A stretch of DNA of 64,000 nt from Mobula hypostoma. Taxonomy: Eukaryota. Every line of letters starts with the position of its first letter. Position 1 is the stretch's first letter. Location: NCBI RefSeq assembly GCF_963921235.1, contig NC_086097.1:170006001-170070000 (forward strand). The letters are read 5' to 3'. Made by a program: the position numbers and the translations under genes. Shown piece after piece: positions 18,830 through 64,000 of the stretch. The notes beneath the pieces were generated by a model. The model worked only from the letters and a program-made list of their open reading frames with translations. It was not told where the DNA came from and ran no database searches.

Positions 18830-21805
18830 TATTGATTTGAAGCAAGAAGGCTGGAAGTGGAACGGCTAAGGATTTTCGGAGTGAAGGCATTTTACTACTC
18901 GGGGTAAAAGGGAGGCAAGACTGCGCAGGCTCATGACATCAGCCAGTAGAGCGGGAAAAGTTTAAGAAGAAGACTGCCATATCCAGTGGGCAGCAGAGTG
19001 AGAGGTAGCAGAGTGGTAGGGGTTTGGCTCAATGGGCTTAGGCAGTAACGAGGCGAGGTAGGTTTACCTGTGTTAATTGCGCAAAGGAAGTAGTATGTGT
19101 GTGAGGCCGGTTTTCTGTGCTCAGTGTCAGATGTAGGAAGTCCCGGAGTCTCCCAGCCTCCCGGACGGCCATATCTGCACCTGGTGTGTCGAGCTGCAGC
19201 TCCTAAGGGACCGCGTCAGGGAACTGGAGCTGCAGCTTGATGACCTTCACCTGGTCTGGGAGAGTGAGGAGGTGATAGAAAGGAGTTGTAGGCAGGTGAT
19301 CACACTGGGGTCATGGAGACAGACAAGTGGGTAACAGTCAGGAGAGGGAAGGGGAAGAGTGAGGTACTAGAGAGTATCCCTGTGGCTGTTCCCTGAACAA
19401 TAAGTACTCCTGTTTGAGTACTGTTGGGGAGGACAGTCTACCTGGGGTAAGCAACAGTGGCCGTGCCTCTGGCACAGAGCCCGGGCCTGTGGCTCAGAAG
19501 GGTAGGGAAAGGAAGAGGAAGGCAGTAGTGATAGGGGACTATATAGTTAGGGGGACAGGCGGGTGATTCTGTGGATGCAGGAAAGAAACTAGGATGGTAG
19601 TTTGCCTCCCGGGTGCCAGGGTCCGGGATGTTTCAGATCGCGTCCATGATATCCTGCAGTGGGAGGGAGAACAGCCAAAGGTCATGGTACATATTGGTAC
19701 CAACGACATAGGTAGGAAAAGGGAAGAGGTCCTGAAAAAAGACTATGGGGAGTTAGGAAGGAAGTTGAGAAGCAGGACCGCAAAGGTAGTCATCTTGGGA
19801 TTATTGCCTGTGCCATGCAACAATGAGTATAGGAATAGAATGAGGTGGAGGATAGATGCGTGGCTGACGGATTGGAGTAGGGGGCAGGAATTTAGAGTCA
19901 TTGGGACCTCTTTTGGGGCAGGTGTGACCTGTACAAAAAGGATGGATTGCACTTGAATCCCAGGGGGACCAATATCCTGGCGGGGAGGTTTGCTAAGGCT
20001 ACTGGGGAGAGTTTAAACTAGAATTGTTGGGGGGTGGTAACTGAACTGAAGAGACTGGGGAAGAGGCGGTTGGCTCACAAATAGAGAACGTTTGGAGACA
20101 GTGTGTGAGGGAGGATAGGCAGGTGATAGAGAAGGGACGCACTCAGGCGGATGGTTTGAGATGTGTCTATTTTAATTCAAGGAATATTATGAACAAAGCG
20201 GATGAGCTTAGAGTGTGGATCAGTACTTGGAGCTATGATGTGGTGGCCATTACAGAGACTTGGATGGCTCAGGGACAGGAATGGTTACTTCAAGTGCCGG
20301 GTTTTAGATGTTTCAGAAAGGACAGGGAGGGAGGCAAAAGAGGTGGGGGCATGGCACTGTTGATCAGAGATAGTGTCACGGCTGCAGAAAAGGTGGATGT
20401 CATCGAGGGATTGTCTACGGAGTCTCTGTGGGTGGAGGTTAGGAACAAGAAGGGGTCAATAACTTTACTAGGTGTTTTTTATAGGCTGCCCAATAGTAAC
20501 AGGGATATTGAGGAGCAGATAGGGAAACATATCCTGGAATAGTGTAATAATAACAGAGTTGTTGTGATGGGAAATTTTAACTGCTCTAATTTCGATTGGC
20601 ATCTCCCTAGAGCAAGGGGTTTAGATGGGGTGGAGTTTGTTAGGTGTGTTCAGGAATGTTTCTTGATGCAATATGTAGATAAGCCTACAAGAGGAGAGAC
20701 TGTACTTAATTTGGTATTGGGAAATGAATACCTAGTCAGGTGTCTGATCTCTCAAAGGAGAGCATTTTGGAGATAGCGGTCATAATTCTATCTCCTTTAC
20801 AATAGCATTGGAGAGAGATAGGAGCAGACAAGTTAGAAAAGCATTTAATTGGAGTAAGGGGAATTATGAGTCTATCAGGCAGGAACTTGGAAGCTTAAAT
20901 TGGGAACAGATGTTCTCAGGGAAATGTACAGAAGAAATGTGGCAAATGTTCAGGGGATATTTGTGTGGAGTTCTGCATAGGTACGTTCCAATGAGACAGG
21001 GAAGTTATGGTAGGGTACAGGAAGCATGGTGTACAAAGGCTGTAATAAATCTAGTCAAGAAGAAAAGAAAAGCTTACAAAAGGTTCAAAGAGCTAGGTAA
21101 TGTTAGAAATCTAGAAGATTATAAGACCAACAGGAAGGAGCTTAAGAAGGAAATTAGGAGAGCCAGAAGGGGCCATGAGAAGGCCTTGGCGGGCAGGATT
21201 AAGGAAAACCCCAAGGCATTCCACAAGTATATGAAGAGCAAGAGGATAAGACGTGAAAGAATAGGACCTATCAAGTGTGACAGTGGGAAAATATGTATGG
21301 AACTGGAGGAAATAGTAGAGGTACTTAATGAATACTTTGCTTCAGTATTCACTATGGAAAAGGATCTTGGTGATTTTAGTGATGACTTGCAGCAGACTGA
21401 AAAGCTTGAGCATGTAGATATTAAGGAAGAGGATGTGCTGGAGCTTTTGGAAAGCATCAAGTTGGATAAGTCACCGGGACCAGATGAGATGTACCCCAGG
21501 CTACTGTAGGAGGTGAAGGAGGAGATTGCTGATCCTCTGGCAATGATCTTTGCATCATCAATAGGGACGGGAGAGGTTCTGGAGGATTGGAGGATTGCGG
21601 ATGTTGTTCCTTTATTCAAGAAAGGGAGTAGAGATAGCCCAGGAAATTATAGACCGGTGAGTCTTACTTCAATGGTTGGTAAGTTGATGGAGAAGATCCT
21701 GAGAGGCAGGATTTATGAACATTTGGAGAGGTATAATATGATTAGGAATAGTCAGCATGGCTTTGTCAAGGGCAGGTCATTCCTTACGAGCCTAATTGAA
21801 TTTTG
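18830..21805 (+). mobile_element. CR1 LINE with 5' UTR, ORF1 (zinc finger + SGNH esterase) and ORF2 (EN to start of RT); 3' part missing
   Basis: ORF1 motifs CLPGARVRDV and VHIGTNDIG, ending in GAGAGTTTAAACTAG (20021). ORF2 contains YFNSRNIMNKADEL, VAITETW, KSPGPDEMYPR, NYRPVSLTS and SQHGF. Several stops and frameshifts. Confidence 0.9.
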
Positions 21806-35549: not shown

Positions 35550-37050
35550 GGAATTACAGGAAGAATGTGAAGACGGTAGAAGAGGTTTACTAGGATGTTC
35601 TGATAGGAGAGATTGGCCAAACTTGGGTTGTTTTCTCTGGAGCAGCAGAATCTGAGGGGAGATCTGATAGAGGTTTATAAGATTATGAGAAGTATAGTTA
35701 AAATAGACCACCAGTATCTTTTTATCCCCAGAGTTGGTGCATCTAATACTAGAGGGCACACATTTAAGCTGAGGGGGGTAAATTCAATTCCGATGTGCAG
35801 GGCAGTTTTTTTTTCACAGAGAGCTGTGGGTTCTTGGATTATGCAGTCTGGGGTGGTAGTAGCGGTAAATATGATAGAGGCGTTTAGGAAGCTCTTAGAC
35901 AGGCACATGAATGTGCAGAGAATGGAAGTATATGGACAGTGTGTAGGAAGAAAGGATTTGTATAGTTAGGTGTTTCATTATTAATTTAATTAGTTTGGCA
36001 AAACATTGTGGGCTGAAGGGCCTGTTCCTTTTCTCTATTGTTCTAAATGACACTGAGGCCCTCAAGTGCATTTTTTAAGGAGGGAACATGGATGATGTTG
36101 TACATTGTAAGAAAATGTACTGAACTGTTACAATTGTATATATTATGAATAAAGTAAGTTTATGAAATTAAAAGATATGTTATAAGTGATGCCCCATCAG
36201 GTGGAAGTAAGTGAATCCATAGCAGCTTTTGCAAAAGTGCATCAGAATTTGCCACAGTGCTTTGGATTATATCATCACTAAAATCTAGTTTAAAGCCATA
36301 AGTAATTGAAACTTTATTATCAGTGTACCATCGAAGAAAGGAATATTGAGGGTATTTCATATTCAGATTAGAGTGTATCTAAGATGCATTGGCTAGTTCT
36401 GTGCACCAGCCACCAGTAAGGCTGTATTACAGATTCACCAGAATTAAATAGAAATGGTTAATGACAAGGACAGGTAGATTAGAATGGGTTTAAGTTTCCT
36501 CCAATTGGTTGGTCAATGAGGGGCATTTGGAAGAAGTGTTTACTGTATGATTAGAGCTAGCCCATACACTTCATCACAGAATGGTAGTAGCAATCTGAAC
36601 AGTTCTGGGTACAATTTTGTTTACCCTAAGATGTATTAAGGTGGAAAGGATGCCAAGATGACTCACAAGGATGCTGCCAGGACTCGAGGGCTTGAATTAT
36701 TGAGAGAGGTTGGAGATGCTGGGACTTTATTCATGAGGAACATAGATAAAGTGAATGTACTCAGTCTTTACCCCAGGGAAAAAGAACGTGAGGGCATACA
36801 GTATGTTTAAAGTGAGAGAGGAAAAATTTAAAAGGAATCTAAGGGGTAATGCCTCTCTGGAATGAGCTGCCAGAGCAAACGGTTGAGGCAGGTACAATAA
36901 CACCATTTAAAAGATTTGGATAAGAATATGGATAGGAAAAGCTTAGAGGGATATAGGCCAGACATGGATAAAGCATGGACTAGCTTAGGTGGACATTTTG
37001 ATCGGCATGGATGAGTTGTGTCAAAGGACTATTTTTGTGCTATGTTTCTC
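35550..37050 (+). mobile_element. Two degraded CR1 3' ends (35550-36045 and 36590-37050)
   Basis: LGLFSLEQQNLRGDLIEVYKIM and GGGCTGAAGGGCCTGTTCC tail; the second copy has the same 3' motifs. Confidence 0.7.
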
Positions 37051-38614: not shown

Positions 38615-40760
38615 AAAAAGTGCAAAGGAGCTGGAGCTGGAACTGGATGAAATCTGGATCATTCGGGAGGCTGAGGGATCGATAGACAGGACTCAGAGAG
38701 AGGTAGTTACACTCAAGATGCAGGACAGAGAGGTAACTGGGTGAGGAATGGGGATAGGCAGCCAGTGCAGAGAACCCTGTAGCCATTCTCCTCAACAACA
38801 GCTATACTGCTTTGGATATTGTTGGGGTGGGGGAAGGTGGAGGAGTGGATGACCTAGCAGAGAAAAGCCACAGCAGTCAGGCCACTGGCACTAAGTCTGG
38901 CCTTGTGGCTCAGAAGGAAGGTGGGAGAAGAAGTGCACTGTAGTGATTCATTGGTTAGTGGAACAGAAAGGAGGCTCTGTGGATGAGAATGAGATTCCTG
39001 GATGATATGTTGCCTCCCAAGTGCCAGCGTCAGGAACACCTCAGATCAAGTCCATAGCATTCATAAGTGGGAGGCTGAGTAACCAGAGGTCGTGGTCCAT
39101 GTTGGTCCATGTTGCTACCAATGATATGGATTGGAGGGATGATAGAGCTGCTCGGAGGGGTTAAGCTAGAGATGCAGGTTGATGGGAATCAGAGCGCCAG
39201 AACAGATCGTGGAGAGAGTGTGGAGAAAGATGTTGTTAAGTCTACATACAAAGTCAGGAATCGAAATGTTGAGCATGCTGGGAATTATGTTTTGAGTTGC
39301 AAATATTTCAATGCAAGGAGTATTGGAGGAAAGACGAATGATCTTAGGGCATGGATCAGTATGTGGAATCATGGCATTGTAGCTATTAGTGAGACTTGGG
39401 TACAGGAGGGGCAGGACTGGCAGCTCATTGCTTTAGACATGATAGAGTGGGGGGGATTACAGGGGGATTGGCTGCATTACTAGTCAGGGAAAATGTCGCG
39501 GCAGTGCTCAGTCAGGAGAGACCGGTGAGGCTTTGTGGGTAGAACTGAGGAATAAGAAAGGTATGATCATGCTAATGGAATTATATTAAAGACCACCCAA
39601 CTGCCTTCGAGATTTAGAGGAGGAAATTTGTAGAGATATCACAGACTGTTGCAAGAAACATAAGGTTGTGATAGTAAAGGATTTTAACTTTCCACATACT
39701 GACTGGGACTCCCATAATTTGAAAGGCTGGATTGTTAAAAGTTTGTCAAATGTGTTCAGGAAAGTTTCCTTAATCAGTACATAGAAGGCAACTAGAGAAG
39801 GTGTGATATTGGATCTCCTATTAAGGAATGAGACAGGGCAGGTGACAGAAATTTGTGTAGGGGAACAACTTGCACTGAGTGATCATAATGCATGATGCTG
39901 CTTGAGCAGACAAGGTGAAGGAGAATCCTAAAGGCTTCTATCGGTATACTAAGAACAAAGGATAGCAGGGGACAAAATTGGTCCTCTGGAAGATCAGAGT
40001 GGTAATCTATGCGTGGAGCTGAAAGTTGGAGGAGATCCTAAAAGGATTTTTTGCTGCTGTATTTACATAGGAGACTGACACAGAGTCTATAGAAGCGTGG
40101 CAAAGCAGCAGTGAGATCATGGAACCGATACAGATTGCAGAGGAGGAGGTGTTTGCTGTCTGGAGGCAAATTGAAATGAATAATTCCCCAGGGCCTGACC
40201 GTGTGTTCCCTTGCACATTGTGGGAGGCTAGTATAGAAATCGCAAGGGCCTTGGCAGAGATATTTATAACATCATTAGACATGGGTGAGGTGCTGGAGGA
40301 TTAAGGGATTGCTCATGTTGTTCCATTGTTTCAGAAAGCTCTAAGAATAGGCCAGAAAATTATAGGCAGGTGAGCCAGACATCAGTAGAGGAAAAGTTAT
40401 TGGAAGGTATTCTAAGGAACCTGATATATAAGTATTTGGATGGACAGGGATGGCTTTGTGTGTTGTAGGTTGTGTCTAAACAACCTTTTAGAGTTTTTCA
40501 AGAAAGTTATTAGAAAAATTGATGAAGACAAGGCTTTGGATATTGTCTAGATGGACCTTAGTTAGGCCTTTGAGAAGGTCGCACATGGCAGGTTGGTCAA
40601 GAAGGTTCAGTCGCTGCCCTTCAGGTAGTAAATTGGCTTCACAGGAGAAGCCAGTGAGTGGTAGTAGACGGTTGCCTCTCTGACTGGAGGCCTGTGGACT
40701 AGTAGTGTGCCGCAGGGATCGATGCTGGGCCCGTTATTGTTTGTCATCTGTATCAATAAT
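38615..40760 (+). mobile_element. Degraded CR1 with ORF1 and internally deleted ORF2
   Basis: ORF1 remnants (ELELELDE; CCLPSA; VVVHVG), EN YFNARSIGGKTNDL and VAISETW, and RT up to VPQGSMLGPLLF. Confidence 0.8.
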
Positions 40761-49958: not shown

Positions 49959-52579
49959 CAGAGAAACATAGAAACAGCCCACAACGCTGTGCTGAACATG
50001 TACTTACTTTAGAAATTACCTAGCGTTACACACATCCCTCTGTTTTCCTAAGCTCCATGTACCTATCCAGGAGTCTCTTAAAAGACCCTATTGCATCTGC
50101 CTCCACCACCATTGCCAGCAGCCCATTCCATGCATTCAGTTCTCTGTGTAAAAAAAAACTTAACCCGACATATCCTCTGTATCTACTTCTAAGCACCTTA
50201 AAACTGTGCCCTCTCATGTTAGCCATTCCAGCCCTGGGAAAAAGCCTCTGACTATCCACAGGATCAATGCCTCTCATCACCTTATACACCTCTATCAGGT
50301 CACCTCTCATCCTCCGTCACTCTAAGGAGAAAAGGCCGAGTTCACTCAACCTATTCTCATAAGGCATGCTCCCCAATCTAGCAACATCCTTGTAAATCTC
50401 CTCTGCACCCTTTCTATAGTTTCTACATCCTTCCTGTAGTGAGGTGAACAGAACTGAATGCAGTACTTCAAGTGGGGTCTGACCAGGGTCCTATATAGCT
50501 GTAACATTACCTCTCGACTCTTAAACTCAATCCCATGGTTGATGTAGGCCAATGCACCATATGCCTTCTTAGCCACAGAGTCAGCTTTGAGTGTCCTATG
50601 GACGCAGACCCCAAGATCTCTCTGATCCTCCACACTGCCAAGGGTCTTACCATTAATACTATATATTGCCATCATATTTGACCTATCAAAATGAACCACT
50701 TCACACTCATCTGGGTTGAACTCCATTTTCCACCTCAGCCCAGTTTTGCATCCTATCAATGTCCCGCTGTAACCTCTGACAGCCCTCCACACTATCCATA
50801 ACACCTCCAACCTTTGTGTCATCAGCAAGTTTACTAACCCATCCTTCCACTTCCTTATCCAGGTCATTTATAAAAATCACGAAGAGTAGGGGTCCCAGAA
50901 CAGATCCCTGAGGCACACCACTGGTGACCGACCTCCATGCAGAATATGACCCATCTTCCACCACTTTTTGCCTTCTGTGAGCAAGCCAATTCTAGATCCA
51001 CAAAACAAGGTCCTCTTGGATCCCATTCCTCCTTACTTTCTCAATAAGCCTTGCATGGGGTACCTTATCAAATGCCTTGCTGAAATCCAGAGACACTACG
51101 TCTACTGCTCTTCCTTTATCAATGTGTCTAGTCACATACTCAAAACATTCAATCAGGCTCGTAAGCCACAATCTGCCTTTGACAAAGCCATGCTGACTAT
51201 TCCTAATCTTATTATGTCTCTCCAAATGTTCAGAAATCTTGCTGCTCAGGATCTTCTCTTTCAACTTACGAACCAATGAAGTAAGACTCACTGGTCTATA
51301 ATTTCCTTGCTATTTCTACTCCCTTTCTTGAATAAGGAAACAACATCTGCAACTCTCCAATCCTCTGGAACCTCTCCCATCCCCATTGATGAAGCAAAGA
51401 TCGTTGCCAGAGGCTCAGCATCCTCTCCCATCCCCATTGATGATGCAAAGATCATTGTCAGAGGCTACTTGCTTCCCACAGTAGCCTGGGTACATCTCAT
51501 CTGGTCCTGGAGCCTTATCCAATTTGATGCTTTCCAAAAGCTCCAGCACATCCTCTTTCTTAATGTCTATATGCTCAAGCTTTTCAATCTGCTGCAAGTC
51601 ATCCCTACAATCGCCAAGATCCTTTTCCATAGTGAATACTGAAGAAAAGTATGCATTAAGTATCTCTGCTACCTCCTTCAGTTCCATACACACTTTTCCA
51701 CTGTTACACTTGATTGGTCCCATTCTCTAACATCTTATCCTCTTGCTTTTAACATACTTGTAGAATGCCTTGAGGTTTTCCTTAATTCTGCTCACCAAGA
51801 CCTTCTCATGACCCCTTCTGGCTCTGCTAATTTCATTCTTAAACTCCTTCCTGTTAGCCTTATAATTTTCTAGATCTCTATCATTATCTAGTCTTTTGAA
51901 ACTTTCGTAAGCTTTCTTTTCTTCTTGACTAGATTTTCAACAGCCTTTGTACACCATGGTTCCTGTACCCTACCATCTTTTCCCTGTCTCACTGGAACGT
52001 ATCTATGAAACATCTAAATCCTGGCACTCCAAGTAGCCATTCTTGCCTCTGAGCCATCTAAGTCTCCGTAGTGGCCACAACATCATAGCTCCAAGTACTG
52101 ATCCACGCTCTAAGCTCATCCACTTTGTTCATGATACTTCTTGCATTAAAATAGACACACCTCAAACCATCGGTCTGAGCACATCCCTTCTCTATCACCT
52201 GTCTTTCCTTTCTCTCTCACTGTCTCCAAGCTTTCTCTATTTATAAGCCAACAGCCCTTTCCTCTGTCTCCTCAGTTTGCTTCCCACCCCCCGGCAATTC
52301 TAGTTTAAACTCTCCCCAATAGCCTTAGCGAACCTCCCTGTCAGGATAATGGTCCCCCTGGGAGTCAAGTGCAACCCGTCCTTTTTGTACAGGTCACGTC
52401 TGCTCTAAGAGAGGACTCAATGATCCAGAAATCTGAATTCCTGCCCGCTGCTCCAATCCATCAGCCACACATTTATCCTCCACCTCATTCTATTCCACTG
52501 TCACATGGCACAGGCAGTAATCCCGAAATTACTACCTTTGAGGTCCTGCTTCTCAACTTCCTTCCTAACTTCCTGAAAT
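49959..52579 (-). mobile_element. CR1 from the end of ORF1 to the 3' tail, with internal deletion
   Basis: ORF1 end GAGAGTTTAAACTAG (52315-52300); EN deleted at ~52007; ~45-bp tandem duplication at ~51372-51465; GVPQGSVLGPLLF..KLADDTK; flanked by CATAAA (49953-49958, 52580-52585). Confidence 0.9.
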
Positions 52580-61052: not shown

Positions 61053-62000
61053 GACAGGCATGAGGGTAGAGACATTTCGTATCAGTGGAGGAACAATAGA
61101 GGTCATTGCTGACTGTGCCTATTGGATATCGTGGTGCTAAGACAGTCCTGGATTTATTCTACATGGGTCTAACCTCAGTCTTTATAGACTAATGCCAAGG
61201 TGGTGAAAATTAGGAGTTAAAATTCCAGTCCAAGTTTATTGTCATGTGTACTTACACAGGGTATAAATACTATGAAAATTAGCATTTTGTAGCAGTGGCA
61301 GAGCACATTAAAATCATGACAAATGTAAATTAACATAGTCTTACATTAATATAAATTGTTCATAACTTCCACATCGTAATAAGCACAAGGAAGGATGCCT
61401 CACGCTAATATCTTTCATGTACAAGGCATCCTGACCAATACATGACTGTTGGCAATCCACCCGAAATGTTAAGTGCTAAAGAGGAAATGGACAGGGTAAG
61501 TATGGAGGAACTTTCGTTCTCGTGGAAGAGTCAAATCGAGTTAATTGTCATGCACAGGTACGGTGAGGTACTGATACAATGACAACCTTGCAGCAGCACC
61601 ACAGGCATGCCGGTACAGACAACACACAGAACATAAATCATGAATAAATTATACTAAACATTTAGGAGAGCAAAAAAGACTGTGCAAAATAAGACTTCAG
61701 TGGAAAAGCAAAATAAGAAGCAAGTCCCTGGCCGTGTAAGAGATGGTCCATGATGTTCTGTTGTTGAGATAGGACTAGGATAGCCCTAATGCTACCAAAG
61801 GCAGATGTGGAGGCCAGGTCGTTGGGTGTATATAAGGCAGAGACTGACAGATTCTTGATTGGACAAGGCATCAAATGCTATGGGGAGAAGGCCAGGAAAT
61901 GGTGTTTCAGTCAAAGCAAGTAGCTGAAGAAGTGAACGGAAGAATTCGGGTCGAAAAAGTCATTTTTTTTAAAACACTGCTCGGGGAGAAGGGTCTGCAC

Positions 62001-62066
62001 TGCGCAGGCGCGTGACGTAGCGCGCCAAGGTTTAAAAAGCAGACCACCATATACAGCAGCCATTGT
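62001..62066 (+). promoter_or_regulatory. Putative CR1 internal Pol II promoter motifs
   Basis: TGCGCAGGCGCG (NRF1-like), TGACGTA (CRE-like), TTTAAAAA and GCCATTGT (YY1-like). The same order occurs at 18922-18982. Confidence 0.4.
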
Positions 62067-62213
62067 TGTAGTGGCCATCGTCGGAGTGGACTGAGTCAGA
62101 GTGGACTATGTCAGAGTGGGGCGGCTTTGGCTCAAACAGGCTTCGGCGAGAACAGGCAGAGGCCAGGGTAGGTTCCGGTAAGTTTTTTGTTCAGATTGTT
62201 TAGTGCAGTGAGA

Positions 62214-63148
62214 ATGCCAGGCAGGATGTTGGAATGCTCCTCTTGCAGGATGTGGGAAGTCAGGGAGCCCTCCGGTGTCCCTGACAACGACACCTGCAAG
62301 AAGTGCATCCAGCTGCAGCTCCTGACAAACCGCGTTAGGGAACTGGAGCACGAGCTGGATGACCTATGGATCATTCGGGAGAATGAGGAGATTATAGATC
62401 GTAGCTACAGGGAGGTAGTTATGCCAAAGGAGCAGAGGACAGGAAATTGGGTCACTGTCAGGCGAGGGAAGAGGAAAGGGCAGGCAGAGCAGGGTTCCCC
62501 TGTGGCCATTCCCCTCAACAACAAGTATAACGCATTGGATACTGTTGGGGGGGATGACTTACCTGGGACTAGCTGCAGTAGCCGGATCTCTGGCACTGGG
62601 TCTGGCTCTGCAGTGCAGAAGGGAGGGGGGAAAAGAGGAGAGTGGTAGTGATAGGGGATTCGATAGTTAGAGGTGTAGATAGAAGGTTCTGTGGTCGTGA
62701 CAGAGAACCCAGGATGGTTTGTTGCCTCCCAGGTGCCAGGGTCAAGGATGTCTCTGATCGATTGCATGACATTCTGAAGTGGGAGGGTGACCAGCCAGAT
62801 GTCGTGGTGCACATCGGTACCAATGACATAGCAAGGAAGAGTGAAGAGGTCCTGGACAGTGAGTATAGAGAGCTTGGTAGGAAGTTGAAAAGCAGGACCT
62901 CAAGGGTGGTAATCTCAGGATTGCTACCTGTGCTAGGTGCCAGTGAGGGTAGGAATAGGATGCTCTGGAGGAGGAACAAGTGGCTGAGGAACTGGTGTAG
63001 GGGGCAGGGTTTCAGATTTCAGGATCATTGGGACCTCTCCTGGGGCAGGTGGGACCTGTACAAGAGAGACGGGTTACACTTGAACCACAGGGGGACCAAT
63101 ATCCTTTCAGGGAGGTTTGTTAGTGCTGTTGGGGAGGCTTTAAACTAG
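62214..63148 (+). CDS. CR1 ORF1p (zinc finger, coiled coil, SGNH/GDSL esterase) with one frameshift at ~62630
   Basis: CSSCRMW..CKKC and LTNRVRELEHELDDL, then VVIGDSIVRG, CLPGARVKDV, VHIGTNDI and DGLHLN. Confidence 0.85.
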
Positions 63149-64000
63149 ATTTGCAGGGGGATGGGAACCAGAGTGCCAGAGCTGACAGTGTGGCTGGGGT
63201 GAAAATAAATGGTATTGAAAGTTTAAGCAAATCCGCTGATAGAAAGGTTGTGAGTGGTGGTAAAAATCTTCTGAGGTGTATATATTTCAATGCTAGGAGT
63301 ATTGCGGGGAAGGCAGATGAGTTGAGGGCGTGGATTGACACGTGGAATTATGATGTTGTAGCAATTAGTGAAACTTGGCTACAGGAGGGTCAGGACTGGC
63401 AGCTTAATATTCCAGGGTTCCGATGTTTCAGATGTGATCGAGGCAGAGGAATGAAAGGTGGGGGAGTAGCATTGCTTGTTAGGGAAAATATTACAGCAGT
63501 GCTCAGGCAGGACAGATTAGAGGGCTTGTCTACTGAGTCCTTATGGGTGGAGCTGAGAAACAGGAAAGGTATGGCCACATTAGTGGGATTGTATTACAGA
63601 CCACCCAATAGTCAACGAGACTTGGAAGAGCAGATCTGCAGAGAGATAGCAAGCAACTGCAGGAAACATAAAGTTGTGGTGGTAGGGGATTTTAATTTTC
63701 CATACATTGATTGGGACTCCCATACTGTTAGGGGTCTAGATGGTTTAGAGTTTGTAAAATGTGTTCAGGAAAGTTTTCTAAATCAGTATATAGAGGGACC
63801 AACTAGAGGGGATGCAATATTGGATCTCCTGTTAGGAAACGAATTAGGGCAAGTGACAGAAGTCTGTGTAGGGGAGCACTTTGGTTCCAGTGATCATAAC
63901 ACCATTAGTTTCAATTTGATCATGGACAAGGATAGATCTGGTCCTAGGGTTGAGGTTCTGAACTGGAAGAAGGCCAAATTTGAAGAAATGAGAAAGGATC
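63139..64000 (+). CDS. CR1 ORF2p N-terminus (APE endonuclease), open to the window end; absent from the ORF track
   Basis: Frame is open from 63124 to 64000: FKLDLQGDGNQ..LRCIYFNARSIAGKADEL..VAISETW..GDFNFP..SDHN. First ATG is at 63451, inside the EN domain. Confidence 0.9.

Follow-up and report, generated by a model that had tools for sequence, protein, structure and literature searches.

We propose that esterase-type CR1 LINEs probably make ORF2 by programmed -1 ribosomal frameshifting, which would yield a fusion of ORF1 with the endonuclease (EN) as well as the reverse transcriptase (RT). A slippery heptamer, U_UUA_AAC, stands in ORF1 phase at the end of ORF1 and is conserved at the nucleotide level. 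It is followed at a fixed distance by a run of five guanines (G5), and leads into a linker that keeps the -1 frame as far as the endonuclease and has no start codon shared between lineages. The original prediction had read one such junction as the site of an ORF1-ORF2 frameshift fusion, and this reading is supported by comparative evidence. The decoding mechanism is a known one, likely seen here in a group for which we came across no earlier report of it, and its 3' element is atypical.

CR1 elements are very abundant in sharks, reptiles and birds. CR1-group elements make up 22-34% of elasmobranch genomes according to the available text of PMC13343379, and they predominate among bird repeats. 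Reviews, in the portions available, treat LINE ORF2 translation as an open question, with reinitiation in the tested cases. No report of CR1 frameshifting was found in the literature searched; the founding CR1 papers (Haas 1997, Kajikawa 1997, Kapitonov and Jurka 2003, Kojima 2005) and the Repbase notes lie outside that search and may have raised the idea. Excerpts of PMC2734521, PMC4120745, PMC3905857, 10.1101/788562, PMC11835228 and the main text of PMC13343379 do not mention it, the accessible part of PMC3894237 does not list frameshifting among ORF2 mechanisms, and in that of PMC5009743 the sole non-LTR passage concerns HeT-A and TART.

The window, by which we mean the whole 64-kb stretch of DNA analysed, was searched for CR1 copies, and further loci were collected from metagenomes with three patterns internal to the esterase, none of which covers the end of ORF1; the motif itself was not used to fetch loci. 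The best 80 of 138 confirmed metagenome loci were analysed. The junction sample consists of 18 junctions, namely 15 from metagenome loci and three from window copies, with near-copies among them (L004, L012, L016, L017 and L018 stop short of the junction and are not in the 15). A decayed window copy at 39 kb was excluded from the codon count and included in the linker count. An esterase tree of 83 rows was built by a quick method. A viral collection searched for homologues gave one weak unrelated locus and nothing further, and a search of prokaryote genomes gave 14 weak bacterial SGNH loci that were left out of the sample. Public records list two shark-type CR1 ORF1 proteins, P0020 and P0071, under Pseudomonas aeruginosa and Proteus mirabilis as bacterial SGNH hydrolases, probably through contamination.

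The junction to which the original prediction refers lies at 63 kb, and its features are collected in Table 1 with those of the other copies. ORF1 ends GCT TTA AAC TAG (63137-63148), so placed that T_TTA_AAC falls at 63139-63145 as the original prediction had it. Its account of the -1 frame also holds: an ORF scan of the window finds 63124-63999 open behind the upstream TAG, the encoded protein is an endonuclease (PF03372, E 1e-18), and the earliest in-frame ATG is at 63451, downstream of the YFNARS and SETW motifs. The RT of this copy would lie beyond the window; in a copy at 32-35 kb, RT (PF00078) comes after EN. A profile search gave no Pfam match for the N-terminal part of ORF1 (62214-62645), which is joined to the esterase in homologues and separated from it by a frameshift here, ORF1 being broken over two frames near 62612-62645 by tblastn. 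Because ORF1 is split, the 63 kb copy is a dead relic and any signal is a property of its family. Its named homologues come from sharks, rays and a chimaera, and together with the esterase and APE-type EN they identify it as an esterase-type CR1 of cartilaginous fish; the assignment to esterase-ORF1 CR1 agrees with the sequence of its junction, which matches published CR1 consensuses by eye. The 5' UTR contains a short tandem duplication (62088-62118, +) and, 36 nt upstream of the ORF1 ATG, a splice-donor-like CCG/GTAAGT (62175-62183, +) that was not found in the 19 kb copy with the identical pattern.

Table 1. Positions of junction-related features of CR1 copies in the window
Feature	Position	Strand	Basis or remark
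CR1 5' untranslated region	61975..62213	+	5' limit approximate; by eye and from a similar stretch before ORF1 in the 19-21 kb copy
ORF1 N-terminal part with CxxC pairs and coiled-coil-like segment	62214..62645	+	tblastn with P0002/P0012 (two frames); homologue alignment
ORF1 SGNH/GDSL esterase domain, C-terminus Ala-Leu-Asn-stop	62645..63148	+	PF13472, E 4e-13
Stop codon shutting the -1 frame, 15 nt upstream of the heptamer	63121..63123	+	
Putative slippery heptamer U_UUA_AAC in ORF1 phase	63139..63145	+	exact in 15/18 junctions
-1-frame linker without ATG, heptamer to first endonuclease motif	63145..63288	+	translation P0094
ORF1 stop adjoining the heptamer	63146..63148	+	TAG here, TAA/TGA in other families
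GGGGG run beginning at +11 from the heptamer; candidate 3' stimulator	63156..63160	+	G5 at +11 in 14/17 junctions
ORF2 APE-type endonuclease, continuing past the window end	63274..64000	+	PF03372 and PF14529
Second, decayed CR1 copy: heptamer, stop and G run	20012..20027	+	
Third, decayed CR1 copy: junction	52288..52309	-	
Fourth copy: decayed junction, internal ORF1 deletion, EN still in -1 frame	39159..39180	+	

The motif had also been claimed for two other copies, and it is present at 20012-20020 (+) and 52309-52301 (-). An EN motif stands in the -1 frame in the 20 kb and 52 kb copies as well as in the decayed one at ~39160, where about 280 nt of the esterase are missing (39106-39133, +) and the junction is still in frame with EN. 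The CR1 copies of the window share 68-78% DNA identity, so that by themselves they are evidence of common ancestry and not of selection. The string TTTAAACTA occurs four times in the window against 0.82 expected, the fourth occurrence (36286-36294, -) lying outside every CR1 ORF1 match. As background, the CR1 pieces of the window contain three in-frame X_XXY_YYZ heptamers per 1901 coding codons.

The sample spans five deep lineages; 15 of its 18 junctions have T_TTA_AAC exactly, and each of the three exceptions (L003, L040 and L066) is one base off. In 17 of 18 a T stands ahead of the Leu codon, whether the codon that it ends encodes Ala, Ser, His, Cys or Tyr; the Leu codon is TTA in 17/17 and the Asn codon AAC in 17/17. 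Codon use elsewhere in ORF1 was judged from 50 esterase columns in which 10 or more of the 18 sequences agree in their residue. All 48 non-Trp columns use at least two codons, the commonest reaching 83% at most. TTA fills no more than 3/13 of any of the seven control Leu columns and AAC no more than 6/12 of any of the three control Asn columns; since these columns use other codons, synonymous sites are saturated elsewhere. In the CR1 frames of the window, TTA accounts for 15% of Leu codons and AAC for 30% of Asn codons. The frameshift reading was to be tested by whether synonymous positions, the T at 63139 among them, are conserved, and their conservation withstands this internal codon control. 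At the protein level, 56 of 86 ORF1 homologues end in Leu-Asn or Ile-Asn, and most of the remaining 30 look truncated, frameshifted or spliced. Codons for Glu, Gln, Lys, Met and Trp cannot end in T. These residues precede the terminal LN in 2/56 proteins, versus 33/56 one position earlier. Judged by these comparisons, the heptamer signal is real, ancient and well above chance.

The Leu-Asn-ending loci fall into five deep groups of the esterase tree: cartilaginous fish; L002, adjoining P0065, which is close to the sturgeon-labelled P0069; an amniote-type group that includes the turtle-labelled P0075; an invertebrate-type group of L007, L009 and P0089, whose esterase end is similar to that of P0091 and P0093, both labelled Lamellibrachia; and L003. 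Because the deep forks of the tree are weak, a single origin of the five groups is undecided either way.

Contigs piled up on the window in two runs (11,383 and 12,473 contigs) show no variant in 63139-63147 and variants at 63138, 63148, 63149, 63150 and 63152, among the 40 variant rows listed of 57. More than 300 contigs per run have an exact match that starts at 63139. The pile-up agrees with conservation of the heptamer but is weak evidence, because upstream no more than 13 of ~43 third positions are variable. Raw-read runs X21 and X22 matched 2 and 0 reads, which is too few to weigh.

Published consensuses carry the same junction. In the supplement of PMC13343379, as available with 400 characters per cell, TTTAAACTA occurs in 23 places, of which 16 are CR1 ORF1 ends as judged by eye, one is a similar end in a Crack-labelled element and six lie elsewhere. 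The 16 consensuses come from shark, ray, chimaera, bowfin, coelacanth, frog and crocodilians (species taken from the abbreviations), and a lizard CR1 family has a TGA form of the junction. Within those same cells, no CR1 end had G, A or C for the first T before TTAAACTAG. Since searching by motif favours the motif, a counter-check used an anchor in the esterase upstream of it; it gave seven matches, six of them readable, with the heptamer in 6/6.

If ribosomes enter ORF2 at the heptamer, the sequence behind it should be read in the -1 frame. The linker from the heptamer to the first EN motif is 105-285 nt long and unrelated in sequence between groups, and its length is a multiple of three, which keeps the -1 frame, in 12 of 15 junctions; the three misses are one base off. 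In the 12 frame-kept linkers the -1 frame has 4 stops, the 0 frame 35 apart from the ORF1 stops, and the +1 frame 59; L022 contributes 39 nt to this count and has its EN motif near 195 nt in the same frame. An ATG before the EN motif is absent from seven of the 12, and the other five have it at unrelated places. No AUG or near-cognate start is shared across the lineages of the sample, and the initiation at TTG 63151 or at a GTG that had been put forward as an alternative fails on this point. In the tightest case the -1 frame is shut just 3 nt ahead of the heptamer and so leaves no room for a start upstream. With the linker frame kept and no start codon in common, the coding frame therefore starts at the heptamer or the adjoining stop. 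Three single copies with ORF1 and ORF2 annotated as one ORF (P0087, P0090 and P0092) form single-member clusters and look like private junction indels, and these natural fusions were counted neither way.

Downstream of the heptamer, GGGGG starts exactly 11 nt 3' in 14 of 17 junctions, with G at 88-100% per position. The third-codon positions of the -1 frame within the run are G in 17/18 and 15/17, and GGG makes up 27% of Gly codons. L003 (680-700) has G_TTA_AAC, an arterivirus-type heptamer, and G5 at +8 in place of +11, in an element that is otherwise open.

The original prediction had expected a pseudoknot, hairpin or G-quadruplex downstream. No conserved one was found, and the fixed-distance G5 stands there instead. 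Folding energies of 50 and 80 nt downstream gave z-scores of -1.5 to +1.2 in 15 junctions, and a consensus fold of 13 aligned junctions had no conserved pairs. No three-tier G-quadruplex was found, and ViennaRNA predicted two-tier ones in only 2 of 15 junctions. No common pairing partner for the G run was found within -150 to +800, pseudoknots having been examined solely as pairwise duplexes of the G-run arm. Long-range pairing of the run (best z about -2 in 4 of 13, some at a C-rich Pro-Pro stretch) was rejected as a candidate, since the pairing seen in the 20 kb copy is not kept in the 63 kb copy. The absence of a shared structure therefore counts against a classical pseudoknot signal. Among the hallmarks of canonical -1 sites, CR1 junctions have the in-phase heptamer, synonymous conservation and a startless downstream -1 ORF, and lack the 3' RNA structure a few nt downstream.

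The sequence of events that we infer is as follows. Translation would mostly terminate at the ORF1 stop, releasing ORF1p. A minority of ribosomes, holding UUA in the P site and AAC in the A site, would slip by -1 onto UUU and AAA, bypass the stop and continue through the variable linker into EN and RT. The product, an ORF1p-EN-RT fusion, would be scarce relative to ORF1p, in the manner of Gag-Pol. The pause may come from the adjoining stop, from a factor acting at the G5 run, or from both.

Three other readings were considered. Ribosomes might terminate and restart in the -1 frame beside the ORF1 stop, at an AUG or any other codon, and make a separate ORF2p, with the heptamer and G run serving to position the ribosome. 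Such reinitiation is the mechanism described, in the available portions of the sources, for SART1 and L1, the LINEs that have been tested (PMC5972666, PMC2881922, PMC10275272), and it would also account for the frame-kept linker. Five of 12 linkers have an ATG somewhere, and TAATG, an in-frame AUG overlapping the TAA stop, is present in 3/16 published junctions (ScyCan_CR1-1a, SquAca_CR1-17a and SquAca_CR1-6c in the available part of the PMC13343379 supplement). The overlapping AUG is, however, absent from the other 13 and from all 18 fetched junctions, the conserved bases are exactly those that a tandem slip needs, including a T that alters no residue, and the downstream structure that SART1 requires is not conserved at CR1 junctions. 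We consider reinitiation unlikely as the general route; it may act additionally in the TAATG families, so that both ways into ORF2 may be used in these sharks. Conservation of the DNA letters might otherwise reflect a protein requirement, with ORF1p having to end in Leu-Asn and the DNA match due to shared ancestry. Leu and Asn are indeed near-invariant in ORF1 proteins, but equally conserved Leu and Asn columns do not hold to TTA and AAC; this reading, scarcely credible, leaves ORF2 entry unexplained and is largely refuted by the codon control.

Nucleotide-level conservation would suit any sequence-specific signal, and the motif might act outside decoding, as a packaging or ORF1p/ORF2p binding site, a TATA-like element or a splice acceptor, with ORF2 started otherwise. 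TTTAAA does resemble a TATA variant, and a donor-like GTAAGT lies at 62178. Against this, the motif keeps the exact ORF1 phase and adjoins the stop in all lineages, and an ORF2-only RNA would offer no AUG ahead of the EN motifs in 7/12 linkers. A splice acceptor would also lose its AG in TAA families, GT..AG ends occur in none of the 15 joints listed of 78, and the donor-like site has no counterpart by identical pattern in the 19 kb copy. On these grounds we rejected the splice-acceptor and internal-promoter readings, and regard a non-decoding role in general as very improbable.

A parallel class was seen among 22 other esterase loci, a set chosen by eye, whose ORF1 ends in TGA; the TGA is followed by C in 17 of 22. 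The EN motif shares the frame of ORF1 in 17 loci (14 without a stop between), is out of frame in three and out of reach in two. These loci form four groups on the esterase tree and include L010, L014, L015, L020, L024, L026, L029, L030, L032, L035, L038 and relatives; L052 and L043 have an apparently sense codon in place of TGA. The arrangement suggests stop read-through to a similar ORF1-EN fusion, which we treat as a lead because in many loci an ATG lies two or three codons further along and because the set is a selected one.

Returning to frameshifting as the preferred reading, a broader and speculative picture, which we hold only tentatively, would join these observations. The G5 at +11 could be a structure-free stimulator bound by a protein, either ORF1p, with possible self-regulation, or a protein of the host that binds G tracts, for instance hnRNP H/F, in both vertebrate and invertebrate-type CR1. 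An esterase ORF1p-EN-RT fusion may be the rule for esterase LINEs, by a -1 slip in CR1 and in-frame UGA read-through in others, and ORF2p might be delivered to its own RNA-protein particle via the ORF1p coiled coil, as Pol is via Gag.

If frameshifting in CR1 is true, the assumed N-terminus and size of CR1 ORF2p change and the missing start codon is explained. Esterase ORF1p would gain an RT-recruiting role, CR1 retrotransposition assays would have a guide, and the junction would be a very old, apparently structure-free eukaryotic -1 signal.

The proposed mechanism has relatives among known systems. SART1 and L1 likewise make a little ORF2 from a bicistronic LINE RNA, and its synthesis depends on translation of ORF1, but in the accounts available they give a separate ORF2p; SART1 uses a stop-start UAAUG pentamer with a 3' structure and L1 a 63-nt spacer, and most CR1 junctions have neither. 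Two-ORF Penelope-like elements are non-LTR retroelements in which ORF1 can be separated by a frameshift (PMC8557442, Fig. 1 legend), although they differ from CR1 in order, in their GIY-YIG nuclease and in the pseudoknot drawn for them. The likeness to Gag-Pol and coronavirus sites, as described in the available part of PMC5009743, lies in an identical heptamer, placed in phase where the first ORF ends, and in a polymerase ORF in the -1 frame with a short overlap and without its own start; U_UUA_AAC ranks there with the heptamers most prone to shift, and equine arteritis virus uses G_UU(A), the form seen in L003, the one exception that is apparently intact. In contrast to Gag-Pol, the element is here a LINE of the APE type that carries an esterase ORF1 in place of Gag, no pseudoknot or hairpin was found, and the fusion may stay uncut, since no protease is encoded in the parts examined. 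Closest in layout is the PRRSV nsp2 -2/-1 frameshift, which has no 3' structure and a short conserved motif, rich in a single base, 11 nt 3' of the shift site after a 10-nt spacer, and is stimulated by nsp1beta and poly(C)-binding protein (PMC4937337, available text). The CR1 motif differs in being G-rich, in its U_UUA_AAC heptamer and in that only -1 is productive; the resemblance of its G5 to the PRRSV type is one of geometry only, with protein binding at the G5 as a candidate.
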